DNA from: a virus
Lineage: Duplodnaviria; Heunggongvirae; Uroviricota; Caudoviricetes
Length of the DNA stretch: 11,081 nucleotides
Direction: 5' to 3' (one strand)
Virus record (IMG/VR): IMGVR_UViG_2534681697_000014
Span: 1-11,081 of that record
Below are positions 1,959-11,081 of the stretch, in pieces (the first letter of the stretch is position 1; each line of letters opens with the position of its first letter). Under the pieces are notes generated by a model. That model did no database searches. It saw nothing but the letters and a program-made list of their open reading frames with translations, and was not told where the DNA came from. Position numbers and translations under genes: made by a program.

Positions 1959-3221
1959 TCAGGCTGCCTTATGCTGCCGCGCATAAATGTACGGCGCGAC
2001 ATACCCCTCGCGGCACACATCCAGATAATCCGACCACCACTGCATCATGGCCTTTCTGGCCTCCAGATGCTCTGCTTTATGCACATATGCCGCCCGCACG
2101 CTGTTGCGCTCCTGGTGGCTCATTTGCCGCTCCACCGTATCGCGTGACCACAGGTCCGACTCCACCAGGGCGCTACAGGCCATTGCCCTGAGTCCATGCC
2201 CACAGACTTCAGTTTTCGTATCATACCCCATCAGACGCAGCGCCCGGTTGGTGGTGTTTTCACTCATTGGCTTGTACGGATTATGGTCGCCGGGAAACAC
2301 CAGATCCAGATGGCCGGAAAGCTCCTGTATCTGTTTCAGAATGGCAATCGCCTGGCGGGAGAGCGGCACGATATGCGGGGTACGCATTTTTGCGCCACGC
2401 CCCGAAAACCGTACTTTATCAATTGCCTCGCGGGTGGCGGGAATGGTCCAGATTTTGTGCCTGAAATCAATCTCGCTCCAGTGGGCGAAACGCAGTTCGC
2501 TGGAACGGATGAACAGATGCAGCGTCAGCACCACCGCCAGCCGGGTTAACTCCCGGCCCTGCTGATAGTCACCGATGCGGCCAAGCAGTTCAGGCAACCG
2601 CTCCAGCGGTAAAGCGGGATAGTGATTCTTTACGGGTGAAGCGACAACGCCATCCAGATGCTGCGCCGGATTGCTTTCGGTAAGCCCCTGCTGAACGGCA
2701 TAGCGCATGATGTTGCTGAGTTGCTGCCGGGTTCGGGACGCGACTTCCAGAAAGCCTTTATCCTCAATAACCCGCAACAAAGCAGTGAAATCCTGCGTTT
2801 TAAGCGTGGCAACGGGCAGATGACCAATCGCCGGGAAGATATGGTTTTCCATACTGGCGAGAATACGGGCGGCATACTCAGCCGACCATTTTTTGTTGGT
2901 TTTGTGCCAGGCCAGCGCCACCGCCTTAAAGCACTTTTCAGGGGAGCAGGCTGCTTTCTCTGCCATGCGCTGCTGCGCCGGGTTGATATTCTGCGCCAGT
3001 AACTTACGGATACCGTCGCGCTGCTGCCTGGCTTCTGCCAGTGAGACCAGCGGATATGCGCCAAGACTGACTCTGGATTCTTTTCCGTTGAAACGATATT
3101 TGAGATACCAGATGCGTGAACCGCTCGGATTGACGAGCAGATACAGACCGTGAGAGCCGGAGAGTTTTACCGGACGGGAAGAGGGTTTTAACTTGCGGAT
3201 TTTAGAATCGTTTAAAGACAT
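1959..3221 (-). CDS. P4-type (tRNA-associated) tyrosine integrase, 420 aa
   Basis: Track ORF 1959..3323 carries a 34-codon in-frame extension; family-typical N-terminus MSLNDSKIRKLKP starts at ATG 3219-3221. Catalytic-domain signatures are present (RSSELR, HGLRAMA, RAAYVHKAEH). Lies 161 bp from the 3' end of tRNA-Asn on the same strand. Confidence 0.9.
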   Translation of the reverse strand: MSLNDSKIRKLKPSSRPVKLSGSHGLYLLVNPSGSRIWYLKYRFNGKESRVSLGAYPLVSLAEARQQRDGIRKLLAQNINPAQQRMAEKAACSPEKCFKAVALAWHKTNKKWSAEYAARILASMENHIFPAIGHLPVATLKTQDFTALLRVIEDKGFLEVASRTRQQLSNIMRYAVQQGLTESNPAQHLDGVVASPVKNHYPALPLERLPELLGRIGDYQQGRELTRLAVVLTLHLFIRSSELRFAHWSEIDFRHKIWTIPATREAIDKVRFSGRGAKMRTPHIVPLSRQAIAILKQIQELSGHLDLVFPGDHNPYKPMSENTTNRALRLMGYDTKTEVCGHGLRAMACSALVESDLWSRDTVERQMSHQERNSVRAAYVHKAEHLEARKAMMQWWSDYLDVCREGYVAPYIYARQHKAA

Positions 3222-3382
3222 TTGAGGGCCACTCCAGAATCGAACCAAACTGCCCCCAGATCTGACCACCAAATTATCCCGATGCGGAGAGAAAACTAGA
3301 TACGCACCGGGAAGGATTTTCACGCTAACTTACTGAATCGTAAACAAATAGAAACGTACAGATAAGCATGAAAACTTGAATT

Positions 3383-3458
3383 TGGCTCCTCTGACTGGAC
3401 TCGAACCAGTGACATACGGATTAACAGTCCGCCGTTCTACCGACTGAACTACAGAGGA
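3383..3458 (-). tRNA. asnT: tRNA-Asn (anticodon GUU), 76 nt
   Basis: Reverse complement reads TCCTCTGTAGTTCAGTCGGTAGAACGGCGGACTGTTAATCCGTATGTCACTGGTTCGAGTCCAGTCAGAGGAGCCA, matching E. coli tRNA-Asn as recalled, with CUGUUAA anticodon loop and encoded CCA. The asnT name (rather than another asn copy) is from position next to mtfA. Confidence 0.95.
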
Positions 3459-4449: not shown

Positions 4450-4539
4450 GGAGAGATGCCGGAGCGGCTGAACGGACCGGTCTCGAAAACCGGAGTGGGG
4501 GCAACTCCACCGGGGGTTCAAATCCCCCTCTCTCCGCCA
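4450..4539 (+). tRNA. serU: tRNA-Ser (anticodon CGA), 90 nt with long variable arm
   Basis: GGAGAGATGCCGGAGCGGCTGAACGGACCGGTCTCGAAAACCGG...GGTTCAAATCCCCCTCTCTCCGCCA; anticodon loop CUCGAAA; encoded CCA. Confidence 0.95.
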
Positions 4540-4566: not shown

Positions 4567-5604
4567 TCAGTGACAAAAATCACACTTGGAATTACTTGGA
4601 ATATTTTCAGGTAACGGGACATCAAGTGTCGGTGAAACTTTAACCTTCCTGTCATAGATTAGCACTTGCCCCTCGGTTTTGTGACCAGAGAAAAGTTGCT
4701 TATCCCGACTGCTTCCTTCATAGTCTGAAATTCCTTTCGCCTTCAGATCATGAAAGGTGAAGTCGGTTAAAATACCTGAAATTTTGCCTGCGCGATTTCT
4801 TGCTTCTACCCACATTTCGTTAAAGCCTTTGTACATATATCGGTTGCCGTATTGATTGCTGATTACATAGGCGGATGTTGGTAACTGTTTTGCTTTTTCG
4901 ATCGCCGCCTGTAATCGTGGACTCCATGCTTTTATCTGTTTTTTTCCTGTTTTCCCTTGCTGGATAAAGATCCCGTCGTTTCCAATCTGCTCCCATTTCA
5001 GCGATAACACATCGGAAACCCTCGCTGCACACAGATAGGCAATTTCCATTGCGATAAAAACAGGAAGAGGTGCAACGCTTAATACTGCCTGGTATTCTTT
5101 GTCGGTTACATATCGTTCGCGGTTTTTGGCCTTGAATTTACTTACACCTGCACATGGGTTAGCCTTCACGTACCCTCGCTCATACCCCCAACTGTAAACG
5201 CGGGACATACTGCTTTTTTCATGGTTGGCTTGCGTTTTACTCTGTTCCCCTCTCTTGTCCATGTATCGACGGATGTGTTCTGGTTTTATGGAATCTGCCG
5301 GCACCTTACCGAATACGGCAAGCAACTTTTTTTGATGTTGCAGATAATCTTTTTGTGTTCTTGGACTGAGGTCACTGTAATAGGCGCTGGCGAGGAATTT
5401 TTCCCACAAGCGACCGAATGTCATTGCACGATCGCGATTATTTACAGTTTCCTCATACTTTTTCCATAAAGCAGCTAAACCATCCTTGATGGCGGTTAGT
5501 GTTACAGATTCTCTGGATGTTGGTTTCCATACATAACTATATTTATTTGGGTATACATTTGGAGGTAATTTTTCGTGTTCAGGATTTTTCCTTCGTCTTC
5601 CCAT
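4567..5604 (-). CDS. Lambda-family prophage integrase (tyrosine recombinase), 345 aa
   Basis: 345-aa ORF with a C-terminal catalytic region (FHDLKAKGISD...GHKTEGQVLIYDRK, Tyr nucleophile); start codon overlaps the stop of the upstream xis-like gene at 5604. Confidence 0.85.
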   Translation of the reverse strand: MGRRRKNPEHEKLPPNVYPNKYSYVWKPTSRESVTLTAIKDGLAALWKKYEETVNNRDRAMTFGRLWEKFLASAYYSDLSPRTQKDYLQHQKKLLAVFGKVPADSIKPEHIRRYMDKRGEQSKTQANHEKSSMSRVYSWGYERGYVKANPCAGVSKFKAKNRERYVTDKEYQAVLSVAPLPVFIAMEIAYLCAARVSDVLSLKWEQIGNDGIFIQQGKTGKKQIKAWSPRLQAAIEKAKQLPTSAYVISNQYGNRYMYKGFNEMWVEARNRAGKISGILTDFTFHDLKAKGISDYEGSSRDKQLFSGHKTEGQVLIYDRKVKVSPTLDVPLPENIPSNSKCDFCH

Positions 5605-5807
5605 CAGATCGCACCAAAATTCGGCTCTACCTCGCGTGGTGGTAAAGTTTTATTGCAGGTAAATAGATCCCGGCTGACAATCGGTTTGCCACTACGATTG
5701 GTATAGAACGGAAGCCCGTTTTCCATTAACCATTTTCGCTGGTGGCTTGCATATTTGCAGCCCGTTAATATTAGCAATTCATCTTCGGTTAAAAATAAGC
5801 TGCTCAT
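5604..5807 (-). CDS. Excisionase-like small protein (DUF4224-like), 67 aa
   Basis: Sits immediately upstream of int and is translationally coupled to it (stop/start share base 5604); LTEDELLILTG...WLMENGLPF resembles the DUF4224 family found at the xis position. Family assignment is from memory. Confidence 0.6.
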   Translation of the reverse strand: MSSLFLTEDELLILTGCKYASHQRKWLMENGLPFYTNRSGKPIVSRDLFTCNKTLPPREVEPNFGAI

Positions 5808-5865: not shown

Positions 5866-6210
5866 TTAAAAATCAGCCTGACTCGGGATCAGTTTTTGCC
5901 AGATAGCTGAAACGTATTTTGCTTGGTAACGAGCGTCATCAAGTGCATTATGGCGCTCACCTTCGAATGGAATAGCCGTTCTGGCATCGAAGTCTATGGC
6001 TTTCCCCAGCTCAACGATTGTGCGTACATCGCGATCGTTGTAGTAACGCCACGGGCAGGGGATCCCCTGCCGTTCGTATGAACGGCGCAAAATCGTGTTG
6101 TCGAAGTTGGCTCCATTTCCCCAGACCTGAACAAAAAATTCACCGGAGTTTTCGTCGATAAATTCCCGCAATTGTAACAGTGCATCATCTAACGGGATTT
6201 CATCGGTCAT
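5866..6210 (-). CDS. C-terminal two-thirds of a DEDDh (DnaQ-like) 3'-5' exonuclease domain, 114 aa, separated from its N-terminal part by an in-frame TGA
   Basis: Contains Exo II (WGNGANFD) and Exo III (HNALDDARYQAKY) motifs; ATG at 6208-6210 lies 3 codons after, and in the same frame as, the TGA (6220-6222) that ends the upstream 695-aa ORF. Confidence 0.7.
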   Translation of the reverse strand: MTDEIPLDDALLQLREFIDENSGEFFVQVWGNGANFDNTILRRSYERQGIPCPWRYYNDRDVRTIVELGKAIDFDARTAIPFEGERHNALDDARYQAKYVSAIWQKLIPSQADF

Positions 6211-6219
6211 AATGGCAGA

Positions 6220-8307
6220 TCACGCTTCGCGTGATTGCTTAAGCCACCATTTAATGGTGTCCCGATCAATGACTCCGCCAGCAGTTTCCAGATCGATAGT
6301 CTTACTAAATTCGGGTCCCATATCTCCGGTTTGCGGATCGAAAAATATTGCATCTATTGAGATGATCGGGGCATCAGGATTTTTTCCCATGGTTTCAAGG
6401 TCGATCATTAGATGGTCACACGTCCTGCTGGTGGATGTGATTTCGTGATGACCATTCACCGTAATTAAGGGATCTGCCGTCTCGCCAGTTTTACTATCGC
6501 TGGCGTGGTCCTGAGCGCTGCCAGCATTCTCCTTGTGTGGATGTTCAGCGCCTTCCATTTCCTCCGGATCATTTTCCTGAACTTCAACCTGATTCTCTTC
6601 ATCGAATGTTTTCTGGTATGTTGCGTCGTCCATCACCGCGCCACAATCAGGGCAGTTGCCGCCACCGCTCTGACCGCAGGCGGTGCAGACTTTTTCCGGT
6701 TCCTGTTGCGCTACTGGTTCGGATTGTTTCGTTTCTGGCTCGTTTTGTAACGCATTTGGGCTGTTTTGTTCCGCTTTTTGGTCGTTCCGTTCCGATTCAT
6801 GCTGGTTCTGGTTCACAGAATCGCGAGTCTGGATCCCCTTGACCCATTTCGGATCATTAGGGTCGCTAATCCCCTCAACAAATTCACCACGCGATACAGC
6901 AAGTAACTTATCGGCGTCAGGCTGGCTGATATTGGCTGCCTGCATAATTTTGTTTACTTCGTCAGCGGTGACTTTTACTTGGTTAGCGGAACTCACCTGC
7001 GACTGAGCATCCAGCGACTGCGCGTTCTGGCAATGTTCAGTTGTATCCGGTTCCATTGTTTCAGTTGTTGCCTGTTCACCTGCCATTGCGTCAGATGGTT
7101 GTGGTTTTTCTTCTTCTGTTTCACGCTCAGTAACCACCTCGCGGTTAATTTCTTCCAGGATATCTTTTTCCGGCGTATGCCGGGCAGCTGTGAGAGTTTC
7201 CTTGCTGGGGTTCTCGTGATCAGTTTCCGTCAAATAGGCGTTGATATACCCCTGAAGGCGTCCCGGGTAGTGATAAAATTCAGGGTGTGCGCTTCGGATA
7301 AGTGCAAAAATAGCGGCGCGGGAATAGTCCAGAATACCCGGGGTTGCACGAAGTGCTGCGGACCATTCTTTGAACGGACTTTCTTTTTTCAGGACTACTT
7401 CTTTTGCGCGACGATAAACGCTGCCCGGAATTTCATAAATATTAAAATCCATCGGAAGTGTGGCTGCTGCAATCTCCACATCCAGTGTGTCGAGGGTGTG
7501 TACTAAATTCGGATTGCGATCGGTTTTGTTCCCACCGCCAGCATTAGCACCGGAAGCCGTGCGGGTGATGCGTGAAACACGATTTCCTTTCATCCACTCT
7601 TTTGTCAGCAGACCCCGATCAGTGTAGTCAGCGTCCAGGTATGCTTCGAAAAAAGCAGTTATTAGTCCCAGGTCTGAATTACCAGGATTAGGGAAAACTT
7701 TGTCAGTGTCACGAACCAGTTTGTGGAGGTCGCGAATCTCCAGCGAGTCGAGCAGACTGGTTTTATGCGAAATAGCCAGGGCAGTAACAGCCGGTAGTTC
7801 TTCAGCCCGTGCAATGTGTAATGCCTGGAGTTCGTCGCGTGAAACGTGCGTTACTGGTTTTTCGCTGCCGTGTTGAGCAAGCCAACGAATGGGCAGTTCC
7901 TGACCGGAGACAGGTAGAAGCATGCTCTCCTCAATCTCAGTCATGTCTTCGCCGTTGATGTTGGTATTATCAGTGCTGGCTGATTTGTCCTGAACAGAGG
8001 GGGAAGGGCCGATAAATGTCATTGTGATGCCATCTTTCCCGCCTTTTTCATAGCGGTTGCAGAATTCAGTATCAAACACGCCTTCTGGCGGAAGGTCGTC
8101 AACAACGGGCAAATTGACGCGGACGGGTTTTTTAAAGTCGTCTTCATCATAATCGTTGTCATCCATTGCGGTAATGCAGCGGGAGATTGCAACAGATAAT
8201 TTTTTTGCTGTAGTCCAGTAAAAACCACCTTTAATTCCTAGGCGTTTTCTTACTTTGTCATTTTTTGCTTCGCAATATAGTGCAAATTCTTCTTTATCAG
8301 TGCTCAT
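6220..8307 (-). CDS. Large acidic RecE-N-terminal-like protein (695 aa) whose last 60 residues form the N-terminal part (Exo I motif) of the DEDDh exonuclease domain
   Basis: Long ORF with ATG at 8305-8307; zinc-ribbon [15 protein letters not shown]; acidic low-complexity stretches; C-terminal [25 protein letters not shown] carries the D-x-E Exo I motif. Resemblance to the Rac RecE N-terminal region is from memory only. Confidence 0.75.
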
Positions 8308-8400: not shown

Positions 8401-8592
8401 TTAAAATCCTGCCGGGATTTCGTTATTATCCTGGTGAATAACTTTATCGACCGGATAACAGTTGCCTGGAATTTTCTGTTCGGTTGCTGCTGCCATACAT
8501 TCCTGCATTGTTCTGTGAACACTGACTGCAATATCAACTGGCTCTCCGGAAACAAGAAAAACCGTCAGAATAAGTGCAAATACTGGATTCAT
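8401..8592 (-). CDS. Small hypothetical prophage protein (63 aa) with hydrophobic N-terminus
   Basis: ATG at 8590-8592 overlaps the TGA of the upstream gene (ATGA coupling). Begins MNPVFALILTVFLVSG, a signal-peptide or membrane-anchor-like segment. The longer track ORF (start 8646) is probably an upstream extension. Confidence 0.5.
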   Translation of the reverse strand: MNPVFALILTVFLVSGEPVDIAVSVHRTMQECMAAATEQKIPGNCYPVDKVIHQDNNEIPAGF

Positions 8593-8777
8593 TGTGCACA
8601 TCCTTTTGGCATCAGACGTAAACGGGCCAGCATTGAAACAATGCATACTTTATTTAATAACTCCCGTTCGTGTTTTCTTTTGTTAATGGCCTCTTCAGTA
8701 AATACAGGATTACTGATAGTGACACCAATTTCAAAACAACCTTCAGACGTATTAACGTTTGGTAATAACGTTTTCAT
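8589..8777 (-). CDS. Small hypothetical Cys-containing prophage protein (62 aa)
   Basis: ATG at 8775-8777 preceded by GAGGG at 7-nt spacing; MKTLLPNVNTSEGCFEIGV...CIVSMLARLRLMPKGCAQ. The 97-aa track ORF starting at 8882 is probably an N-terminal over-extension. Confidence 0.5.
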   Translation of the reverse strand: MKTLLPNVNTSEGCFEIGVTISNPVFTEEAINKRKHERELLNKVCIVSMLARLRLMPKGCAQ

Positions 8778-9345
8778 TATCGCGCCCTCAACAATGAGTT
8801 TTGTGATGCGGTGCCTGGTGTCTCCAGGTGACGTTAACCAGTTAACAATTAACGCCGGATACAGAGAATCCACCCATAACACTGTTTTTGGTTTTAACTG
8901 TTCCGCGTGCGCTTAGCCGCATTCACCGCATCACAAAATTCACTTTAAAAAGGGCGGCAGAGCAGTCACGGAGTAAAACTGATACCGCCAAACGTCACCA
9001 GAAAATTGATAACAGAGGGCGTTGCAGCGGGGTTGTCACTTAAGCGTATGGTCAACCTGACAACCCGGTGTCCTCAACGGGGGAAGGAATAATCCCGCCA
9101 TACTTACCGCCGCGCCATTTCGCGGATTGCCACAACCGGAAGCGCACGGTCGACGAAAATTTAACGACAGGCTATCTATGAACCAGCTACCTCGCCGTGC
9201 GCTTTCGCGTTATGGTCTGACTTTTCAGGGAAATATCCTTTCAGTAAACTGTCAGTGCCGGATGCTCACCCGTGTCCGGCGCACGCACTCCACCTCACCC
9301 GTGGAGAACTCCTTAATTACTAACCTTAGCTTTGTTGATTAGCTA

Positions 9346-9564
9346 CTAACGCGGGTATGTAATCATTCTGGCAATGCTTAATGCCGCTGCTTTTTCCAGA
9401 TTGGTGATATCCTGCTCCAGAGCGGACAGATTTTCAGCCTGCTTAGCCCTGGCTTCATTAGCCCATTTCAGATCCTGCGCTGCATTAATTTTCTGGCGCA
9501 TCCACTCATAAAGTTCATCATCGGTATAGTCTGGCGCGATGATGACGGGTTCTCGTTTCTGCAC
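9346..9564 (-). CDS. Hypothetical small prophage protein (72 aa, predicted helical/coiled-coil), GTG start
   Basis: GTG at 9562-9564 preceded by GAGGAA; charged, helix-favouring sequence (ANEARAKQAENLSALEQDITNLEKAAALS). Confidence 0.5.
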   Translation of the reverse strand: MQKREPVIIAPDYTDDELYEWMRQKINAAQDLKWANEARAKQAENLSALEQDITNLEKAAALSIARMITYPR

Positions 9565-9593
9565 GCTGATTCCTCGCGGTGCTGTTTCGCTTA

Positions 9594-9722
9594 TCAGCCG
9601 TTAGATTTTGCCGAACTGGAAAGCGCCTGTTTAAATTCGCTGAAGCTGAGAGCTTCTTCGCCTTCGGCAAGGCCTTCGAAGTATTCTTCGTAAGCCTTTT
9701 CCATGATTGTGTCGAAATCCAT
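9594..9722 (-). CDS. Small acidic hypothetical protein (42 aa), not in the ORF track
   Basis: My translation of the minus strand: MDFDTIMEKAYEEYFEGLAEGEEALSFSEFKQALSSSAKSNG. ATG at 9720-9722 sits 2 nt after the TGA of the upstream 51-aa ORF, with GGTGGG just upstream. Confidence 0.4.
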   Translation of the reverse strand: MDFDTIMEKAYEEYFEGLAEGEEALSFSEFKQALSSSAKSNG

Positions 9723-9723
9723 A

Positions 9724-9879
9724 TCACCCACCTGAATTTCTTTCCAGCCAGCGACGCGCTCCAGATTCGGTTTTAAACGTTTTGCTTTTGGTATACGTCA
9801 TTGCGGTGAAGGTGCCGTCCTGGTTGGGAAACACGCCGTACACCAGAGATTCGTTGTTGCCAAGATCGATAGTATCCAT
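9724..9879 (-). CDS. Small hypothetical prophage protein (51 aa)
   Basis: MDTIDLGNNESLVYGVFPNQDGTFTAMTYTKSKTFKTESGARRWLERNSGG; ATG at 9877-9879 preceded by GAGGT at 4-nt spacing. The 92-aa track ORF (to 10002) extends this frame into the IS66 end and is probably artefactual. Confidence 0.45.
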   Translation of the reverse strand: MDTIDLGNNESLVYGVFPNQDGTFTAMTYTKSKTFKTESGARRWLERNSGG

Positions 9880-10023
9880 GCTGACCTCATTTCCCCTTAA
9901 CGCCGGGGTAGCGGAACAAAAACCTGCTGCATAGTTATTAAGTAAGCGCCCCATCAGCGACGTCTTGTGAAAATTGTCCTGTCTGGCAACAATCGCGCCC
10001 ATCTATATTGATGGACACGAACG

Positions 10024-10698
10024 ATGAATTCCCAGACAACAAAAGATATTCCCTGCTTCCGTTCTTATTTGCCTGATGCCCTGCGTTTAAGATTTGAAGA
10101 TAAACTGACCATCCGGGCCATCGCTCAGCGTCTGGGTCTCAGTCATTCCACAATACATACGCTTTTTCAGCGATTTCTTGCATCCGGTATCGCATGGCCA
10201 TTGCCCGATTCAGTTTCATTCGCTCAACTTGACGCCATCCTTTATGCCAACAGAAAGAAGGAATTAACAGAGCCTCAAATCAGAGAAGGCTCATGGCGAA
10301 AAGAACGGCGAACCAGCTATAGCCGTGAATTTAAGGTCCGTCTGGCTAAGCAGGCGTTACAGCCTGGGGCTGTTGTTGCCCGGATCGCCAGAGAACACGA
10401 TATCAATGATAACCTGCTGTTTAAATGGAAAAGCCAGTACGAGGACGGATTACTGAGCGATGATGACATACAGGAATGCATGCCTGTCCCGGTGGCACTG
10501 ACTGATACGCCGGAGCCGACCAGACCAGTTACAAATCCCTTCTGGCGTAACAAGCATGATGAGCGCCCTGAGGGGGCTCCCGGAAACGTCCCACGGTGCG
10601 AGCTGCATCTTAAATCAGGTGTGGTAAAACTGTTTGACCCTCTCACTCCGGAACTGTTACGGGCGCTAATCCGCGAAATGAAAGGGGGTATCCGATGA
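10024..10698 (+). CDS. tnpA: IS66-family accessory protein TnpA (orf1), 224 aa as called
   Basis: HTH region RTSYSREFKVRLAKQALQPGAVVARIAREHDINDNLLFKWKSQY typical of IS66/IS3 orfA proteins; stop overlaps tnpB start (ATGA at 10695-10698). Longer than the roughly 135 aa I expect for IS66 TnpA, so the true start is uncertain. Confidence 0.65.
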   Translation: MNSQTTKDIPCFRSYLPDALRLRFEDKLTIRAIAQRLGLSHSTIHTLFQRFLASGIAWPLPDSVSFAQLDAILYANRKKELTEPQIREGSWRKERRTSYSREFKVRLAKQALQPGAVVARIAREHDINDNLLFKWKSQYEDGLLSDDDIQECMPVPVALTDTPEPTRPVTNPFWRNKHDERPEGAPGNVPRCELHLKSGVVKLFDPLTPELLRALIREMKGGIR

Positions 10699-11042
10699 TA
10701 ACGCTGCCGACCGGTACCAAAATCTGGATCATCGCTGGCATCACAGATATGCGTTGTGGCTTCAATGGCCTGGCTTCGAAGGTGCAGAACACGCTGAAAG
10801 ATGACCCGTTCTCCGGGCATATCTTCGTCTTCCGGGGCCGCAGTGGCAAAATGGTGAAAATACTGTGGGCCGATCGTGACGGGTTATGCCTGTTCGCCAA
10901 ACGCCTGGAACGGGGCCGCTTCGTCTGGCCGGTGACCCGGGAAGGGAAAGTGCACCTGACGCCAGCTCAGTTATCCATGCTACTGGAGGGGATCGCGTGG
11001 CAACATCCCAAACGGACAGAACGGCCTGGCATCCGGATATAA
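10695..11042 (+). CDS. tnpB: IS66-family accessory protein TnpB (orf2), 115 aa
   Basis: MITLPTGTKIWIIAGITDMRCGFNGLA...KILWADRDGLCLFAKRLE is the characteristic IS66 Orf2 sequence and length; AGGGGG RBS 8 nt upstream. Confidence 0.9.
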   Translation: MITLPTGTKIWIIAGITDMRCGFNGLASKVQNTLKDDPFSGHIFVFRGRSGKMVKILWADRDGLCLFAKRLERGRFVWPVTREGKVHLTPAQLSMLLEGIAWQHPKRTERPGIRI

Positions 11043-11068
11043 CCCGTGATAAAACAAGGGAATGAACA

Positions 11069-11081
11069 ATGAACTCCCCGA
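11069..11081 (+). CDS. tnpC: Probable 5' end of the IS66-family transposase TnpC (first 4 codons only)
   Basis: ATG at 11069 with AAGGGA 7 nt upstream, 26 bp after the tnpB stop; position fits the third IS66 ORF. Too short to verify. Confidence 0.3.

Follow-up and report, generated by a model that had tools for sequence, protein, structure and literature searches.

A stop-interrupted prophage gene of Shigella boydii ATCC 9905 that joins a RecE-type N-terminal region to a DexA-like DEDDh exonuclease domain

The locus described here raises the question of what a RecE-type protein does when its nuclease domain is of another fold and no annealase gene stands beside it. The DNA is a stretch of 11,081 nucleotides (the window; IMG/VR record IMGVR_UViG_2534681697_000014), which is the entire contig AERN01000058.1 of Shigella boydii ATCC 9905, and the gene in question lies on its minus strand, upstream of the excisionase and integrase genes of a prophage. 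An earlier note had described a large open reading frame (ORF) at this place as an acidic, RecE-like N-terminal region with a zinc ribbon, joined to a 3'-5' DEDDh nuclease and having no recT partner, and had favoured, as a speculation, a role in host interaction or anti-defence over recombination. We consider it likely that the gene is a RecE-N/DEDDh hybrid of a lambdoid (Qin/Rac-like) early-left operon, which is dead in this copy and has an end-processing role in its intact relatives.

The proposed ORF of 695 aa (6220-8307, minus strand) is real, but it is not the whole gene. A second minus-strand ORF of 114 aa lies at 5866-6210, and 5866-8307, read in a common frame, contains 813 sense codons and just one stop among them (KQSREA, stop, SAIMTDEIPL). 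Since both ORFs are in a common frame and only this one stop separates them, they are regarded as one gene, which is split by a TGA and has the following parts.

5866..8307, minus strand: stop-interrupted gene (one frame, 813 codons) encoding a RecE-type N-terminal region followed by a DexA/Rv2179c-type DEDDh exonuclease
6460..8307, minus strand: acidic RecE-homologous N-terminal region, residues 1-616 (NF007259, BLASTP, PF06630)
6643..6687, minus strand: putative zinc ribbon CxxC-x7-CxxC, residues 541-555, conserved in RecE (weak Pfam DZR match, E 0.04)
5899..6414, minus strand: DEDDh 3'-5' exonuclease domain at residues 632-803 when translated past the stop (PF16473, DexA alignment, AlphaFold2 and Foldseek)
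6220..6222, minus strand: in-frame TGA in place of the CAA of relatives at codon 696, which falls between Exo I and Exo II
5866..6210, minus strand: 114-aa ORF with Exo II and Exo III, covering the 3' portion of the nuclease domain (PF16473 positions 77-177 of 177)

The relationship of the N-terminal region to RecE is well supported by profile and pairwise searches. Residues 1-616 align to positions 1-603 of the 877 positions of the NCBIfam RecE equivalog model NF007259 (E 2.4e-283), the Pfam domain Exonuc_VIII (PF06630) matches at residues 57-189 (E 7e-36), and BLASTP shows 58% identity to the K-12 RecE protein (b1350) over 559 residues, with residues 58-616 of the window protein aligned to RecE residues 50-592. 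The NF007259 score of 942 bits lies below the cut-off of 1269 bits, so that the protein is not a member of the RecE equivalog, and this is because the C-terminal third is unmatched. The four-cysteine ribbon aligns with RecE CNACGQTGGDNCPDC in the BLASTP alignment, and the acidic character of the window protein is evident from a pI of 4.65, a net charge of -61, and a D+E content of 17.8%.

The homology ends at RecE residue 592, and the solved PD-(D/E)xK nuclease domain of RecE (PDB ID 3H4R) comprises residues 605-866, which places the exchange of the head at a domain boundary. No significant BLASTP alignment of the window protein to the C-terminal nuclease domain of RecE was obtained. The function of the RecE N-terminal region is stated as unknown (PMC11611040).

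The head of the window protein matches the Rv2179c-like 3'-5' exoribonuclease domain of Pfam (PF16473) over positions 2-177 of 177, with 222.4 bits against a cut-off of 27 (E 4.5e-66). The match is divided by the stop, with positions 2-68 on the 695-aa piece and positions 77-177 on the 114-aa piece, and the coordinates of the longer ORF contain only about one-third of the nuclease domain. The only solved relatives found by a sequence search of the PDB are structures of the T4 DexA protein (PDB IDs 8KEL and 8KEN, E 1.4e-7). The residues D636 and E638 (Exo I), D736 (Exo II), and H786 and D791 (Exo III) are invariant between the window domain, DexA, and six homologues, the DexA counterparts being D7, E9, D119, H186, and D191. 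An AlphaFold2 model of the head, made for a 97%-identical homologue with a 50-sequence alignment, has a pLDDT of 83, and its best Foldseek match in the PDB is again DexA (8KEL, E 3e-12, TM 0.68), followed by matches to RNase T, a DnaQ domain, and Orn/REXO2, in agreement with a DnaQ-like fold.

DexA is a 3'-5' DNA exonuclease and is the best solved match by both sequence and structure, but the two share only 27% identity, and DexA, a stand-alone protein of 227 aa from a virulent phage, contains additional loops. DexA acts in intron homing and in the degradation of host DNA (PMC12153337). In a MAFFT alignment, which is uncertain in this region given the 27% identity, the DexA residues W152 and D169, which take part in 5-hydroxymethylcytosine (5hmC) recognition, align to Tyr and Ala of the window domain, with an Asp two residues on from the latter. 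The tetramer-forming Asp of DexA (D90) is kept at the aligned position of the window domain (PLDDALL), and some stand-alone homologues have Ala there. The founder of the Pfam family, Mycobacterium tuberculosis Rv2179c, belongs to the same family as the window head, but it is not a phage protein, has no RecE-type extension, and did not appear in the PDB sequence search at E<1. A 2014 paper reportedly identified Rv2179c as a 3' exoribonuclease.

The gene of the window most probably no longer works. Its closest intact allele is found in Escherichia coli SCU-105 (WP_139496770.1, 813 aa, annotated as "exonuclease"), from which it differs at 5 of 2,442 nucleotides; two of these differences are neighbours and convert CAA to TGA. 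A sequencing error is unlikely, because the complete genome of the same strain (CP026875.1, also ATCC 9905) encodes the same 695-aa product, and its 114-aa product is identical as well. The TGA separates the Exo I ligands D636 and E638 from D736, H786, and D791 of Exo II and Exo III, and the window copy lacks the uninterrupted reading frame that a functional DEDDh member has. The next in-frame ATG, which starts the 114-aa ORF, follows 9 nt past the TGA, and reading the sequence by eye revealed no Shine-Dalgarno-like sequence ahead of it. As the stop splits Exo I from Exo II and Exo III within one compact domain and no such ribosome binding sequence is seen, the window copy has most likely become a pseudogene only recently, within a prophage of S. 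boydii ATCC 9905 that is itself decaying.

Stop alleles at this codon are rare. The 81-mer that bears the TGA has no exact match in 5,426 complete E. coli genomes, and only 3 of the 6,731 places at which the segment occurs in these genomes have a stop at codon 696. All three have TAA at the Gln696 codon (E. coli WP4-S17-ESBL-08 and two more genomes), the 5' two-thirds of this allele are very different from the window gene, its prophage lies next to ompW, and PGAP labels the gene with "internal stop". The TAA and TGA could be either independent hits on one CAA or the result of local gene conversion, and a path from CAA over TAA or over CGA to TGA would account for both nucleotide changes. Two further candidates were rejected: a protein of 695 aa that also ends in SREA (P0223) is truncated by the end of its contig and has no stop, and the representative of a cluster of 114-aa proteins (P0076), considered as a recurrent split, comes from contigs of at most 1,213 bp, for which reason the cluster probably consists of gene calls on cut genes.

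The gene is also a mosaic at a second place. Its 3' 1.1 kb (5866-6977, about residues 443-813) is 93 to 96% identical in many otherwise different phages, for example PPompW, mEp460, Tritos, and HannyBb, while the 5' part diverges, which marks a junction near residue 443 besides the domain junction near residue 616.

The absence of an annealase partner concerns the genes around the nuclease gene, which are listed here together with the other features of the prophage.

4450..4539, plus strand: tRNA-Ser(CGA), where the prophage is probably integrated (E. coli SCU-105 has this arrangement too)
4567..5604, minus strand: tyrosine integrase of the prophage (PF00589)
5604..5807, minus strand: excisionase xis (DUF4224; phrog_1266, PF13986)
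8401..10002, minus strand: upstream early-left (dicBF-type) operon genes, identified in part from the annotation of relatives, comprising the next six lines
8401-8592, minus strand: ydfD
8589-8777, minus strand: dicB
8952-9003, minus strand: DicF small RNA between dicB and ydfC (Rfam RF00039, 76.7 bits)
9346-9564, minus strand: ydfC
9594-9722, minus strand: ydfB
9724-10002, minus strand: DUF1391 (ydfA-like) gene
10024-11081, plus strand: IS66-family element with orfA (10024-10698), TnpB (10695-11042), and a transposase past the contig end

Within a Qin-type ydfA-ydfB-ydfC-dicF-dicB-ydfD operon, the nuclease gene comes last among the large genes, and xis begins 58 bp downstream of it. No called gene of the contig matches a single-strand annealing protein family, and there is no recT beside the nuclease gene. 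Both Rac recE and the window gene are early-left operon genes upstream of xis and int, but the Rac order is recE-recT-ralR-rcbA-xis, whereas recT, ralR, and rcbA are absent downstream of the window gene and a DEDDh domain replaces the PD-(D/E)xK 5'-3' domain of RecE. In three intact relatives, at the serU site, near potC, and near ompW, xis likewise follows directly after the nuclease gene without an annealase gene, and since they share this layout at three sites, the missing annealase is a family trait and not a local deletion.

With respect to its architecture, the earlier note was right throughout: the N-terminal region is kin to RecE, the C-terminal module is a DEDDh domain by profile, residue conservation, and predicted structure, and no recT is present, which are the three points on which the note had said that its reading depended. 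The architectural observation is correct and is more than a chance resemblance.

In K-12 Qin, the pseudogene ydfE holds the same position after ydfD, and it is a different gene in that slot; the idea that YdfE is an N-terminal remnant of the RecE-N–DEDDh family was dropped after BLASTP showed no similarity. The complete genome has the DUF1391 gene immediately on one side of the IS66 element and the late genes (holin, antiterminator Q, and RusA) immediately on the other; the immunity and replication region has therefore been lost, and the prophage is a remnant.

The other end of the contig suggests a second island. A P4-type integrase gene (1959-3323, minus strand) adjoins a tRNA-Asn gene (3383-3458, minus strand) in DNA with a G+C content of 0.56 to 0.57, and an ORF of 192 aa at the contig edge (25-603, plus strand; G+C content of 0.58) matches the Pfam domain Integrase_1 (PF12835). 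The P4-type integrase is one gene of 420 aa in the draft contig (454 aa as a mechanical ORF) and is found as pieces of 225 and 142 aa in the complete genome, which is either an assembly difference or a pseudogene in one of the assemblies.

The RecE-type N-terminal region is found with heads other than these two nucleases. A search with residues 1-616 against 1.84 billion cluster representatives yielded 264 relatives, and 80 relatives of at least 450 aa (50%-identity clusters) were sorted by phmmer into 15 with a DEDDh head, 21 with a RecE-type head, 30 with other tails of at least 120 aa, and 14 with tails shorter than 120 aa. One cluster accounts for 10 of the 30 other tails and corresponds to phrog_2489 and the stand-alone phrog_7838. 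Its tail resembles the Pfam domain Rad52_Rad22 below the threshold (best score of 19.0 bits, cut-off of 20.3) and has stand-alone homologues of about 50% identity, which are listed at NCBI as "Rad52/Rad22 family DNA repair protein". The structure model of this tail has a pLDDT of 90; Foldseek against the PDB and a profile search of the PDB sequences were negative, and hhalign comparisons with a P22-like Erf and with RecT were not significant.

These RecE-N::Rad52-type proteins share with the window protein the platform and the slot upstream of xis and int, as seen in Pectobacterium phage ZF40 (gp07) and Stenotrophomonas phage BUCT708 (WCS67724.1), but carry a Rad52-fold annealase head instead of a nuclease, and their gene is followed by a Mu Gam-like or Gp157-family gene. 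The representative P0249 has 56% identity to window residues 21-391, and the BUCT708 protein aligns only to the core at residues 270-414. Their annotation as "exonuclease" probably reflects no more than the similarity of their N-terminal regions. Another 11 representatives form a cluster (phrog_26058) that combines the RecE-type N-terminal region with tails of 126 to 363 residues; the two members scanned (P0310 and P0358) have no Pfam match, the one tail read (P0310) is acidic, and the cluster may represent either a fourth kind of head or proteins without any head. Because the same region bears a RecE nuclease or a Rad52-fold annealase elsewhere, it is tied to recombination, and its joining to three different recombination-type heads argues that the RecE N-terminal region is a targeting or assembly platform.

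A stand-alone homologue of the head gives a second indication from gene context. The protein WVX87632.1 of the P22-like Salmonella phage NM-3 is 56% identical to the window nuclease domain and is likewise encoded in an early-left operon; it lacks the RecE N-terminal region, and its gene lies between erf-ssb and abc2 (anti-RecBCD), giving it an annealase partner that the window gene does not have. The position of this homologue in an erf-ssb-exo-abc2 module points to DNA-end metabolism.

For the intact relatives, we propose that the protein would be made upon derepression of the dicBF-type operon and would act as a Mg2+-dependent 3'-5' exonuclease on DNA 3' ends. It would occupy the recombination or end-processing slot of the phage without an annealase partner, with the RecE-type N-terminal region serving as a platform on which other phages appear to mount the RecE nuclease or a Rad52-fold annealase. 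Several points weigh against this proposal. The Pfam family is named for an exoribonuclease (Rv2179c), so that the substrate might be RNA, and a recombination role follows from the context alone, since a 3'-5' polarity gives no 3' overhangs for annealases or RecA and there is no annealase partner. An E. coli homologue of DexA named EcD is reported to act in defence (PMC12153337), the in-frame ATG close behind the TGA means that both fragments might be made and reassemble, and our literature search found no study of a RecE-N–DEDDh fusion protein. In order of likelihood, we place DNA 3'-end processing in the recombination slot first, EcD-like exclusion of phages with modified DNA second, and degradation of RNA or signal molecules third.

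The alternative that survives best, though we consider it unlikely, is that the intact members are prophage defence nucleases of the HREX/EcD kind, degrading the 5hmC-containing DNA of T-even phages from its 3' ends, with the window copy again dead. EcD (HREX, HAK9828821.1) is, like the window head, an enterobacterial DexA-family DEDDh exonuclease; it is reported to digest T4 DNA, to spare unmodified double-stranded DNA, and to protect cells from T4 (PMC12153337). The window domain has the DexA fold and the catalytic residues, the domain is present in 73% of complete E. coli genomes, and dicB is a neighbouring gene. DicB has been reported to confer phage resistance. On the other side, the dicBF-type operon is repressed in lysogens. 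No model of PADLOC-DB (2023) matches, and EcD is a short stand-alone protein and not a RecE-N fusion; its primers place its start at the catalytic MIDxET motif, where the stand-alone homologues of the window domain also begin. In the low-identity MAFFT alignment, the Tyr and Ala at the positions of DexA W152 and D169 and the Asp retained at D90, where EcD has Ala, differ from the features described for EcD, and with these three residues EcD-like specificity cannot be deduced for the window domain. Defence activity is reported only for EcD (PMC12153337). When EcD was sought among 120 listed homologues, no sequence had MIDTET at its start or TIPETYD at its end, and a blastn search of E. coli genomes with the EcD reverse primer gave no match, perhaps because the gene is synthetic or because the query is too short.

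Far less probable is that the nuclease acts on RNA or on (cyclic) oligonucleotide signals instead of DNA ends, as an anti-defence or host-interaction enzyme. The Pfam name, the nanoRNases Orn and REXO2 and the RNase T among the structural neighbours, and the lack of an annealase partner would fit such a function, but the nearest relative by sequence and structure, DexA, is a DNA exonuclease, homologues lie inside recombination modules, and the N-terminal platform is common to a recombination nuclease and an annealase. No DEDDh enzyme is known to act in anti-defence, though no search aimed at one was made. The functional suggestion of the earlier note, which had set an anti-defence or host-interaction role above recombination, consequently finds no support here: the copy in the window is interrupted in its catalytic domain, the nearest relatives of known activity degrade DNA from the 3' end, EcD reportedly serves defence and not anti-defence (PMC12153337), and both the homologue in the erf-ssb-exo-abc2 module and the other heads of the platform speak for recombination.

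That the interrupted gene still works, through reassembly of the 695-aa product with a 114-aa product made by reinitiation at the ATG or through reading of the TGA, is scarcely credible: only 9 nt lie between the stop and an ATG of the same frame, the two ORFs together hold all catalytic residues, and a different allele has TAA at the same codon in three other genomes, but the break disrupts a compact fold made of one domain, the ATG has no evident Shine-Dalgarno-like sequence before it, stop alleles are very rare and are treated as pseudogenes by PGAP, the surrounding prophage is decayed, and codon 696 is not a recoded site since relatives have Gln there.

DNA 3'-end processing by the intact relatives, which remains our preferred reading, would concern a large family. 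A near full-length match to the gene is present in 1,245 of the 5,426 complete E. coli genomes, and the 81-bp DEDDh segment in 3,974 of them, at up to 6 places per genome. DNA for the PD-(D/E)xK domain of RecE was found in 1,736, so the DEDDh segment occurs in more than twice as many genomes. A tblastn search detected the nuclease head in 1,243 phage records, from both temperate and virulent phages, and PHROGs 2082 and 20376 have the same RecE-N and DEDDh architecture. The gene belongs to a very common and already catalogued prophage family of E. coli and Shigella, whose members are named "exonuclease", "3'-5' exonuclease", or "3'-5' exoribonuclease domain-containing protein" in RefSeq and "exodeoxyribonuclease VIII" in phage records.

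The window copy itself matters little, being a dead version of a catalogued prophage gene. For the family, DEDDh-headed proteins are still often labelled "exodeoxyribonuclease VIII" or "RecE family", names that suggest a polarity and a fold which these proteins do not have, and the natural chimeras with three heads offer a means to test the idea of a RecE N-terminal platform. If the EcD result generalises, such genes could be a common means by which prophages act against T-even phages. A speculative and rather doubtful extension is that the RecE N-terminal region is a general platform of lambdoid recombination modules whose head can be exchanged (5'-3' nuclease, 3'-5' nuclease, or Rad52-fold annealase), the DEDDh form being the commonest in E. 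coli and acting as a one-protein system recruited to DNA ends, where it would destroy incoming, possibly modified, phage DNA or process ends without an annealase. If this were true, the family would represent a widespread and unrecognised exclusion or end-processing function of prophages.

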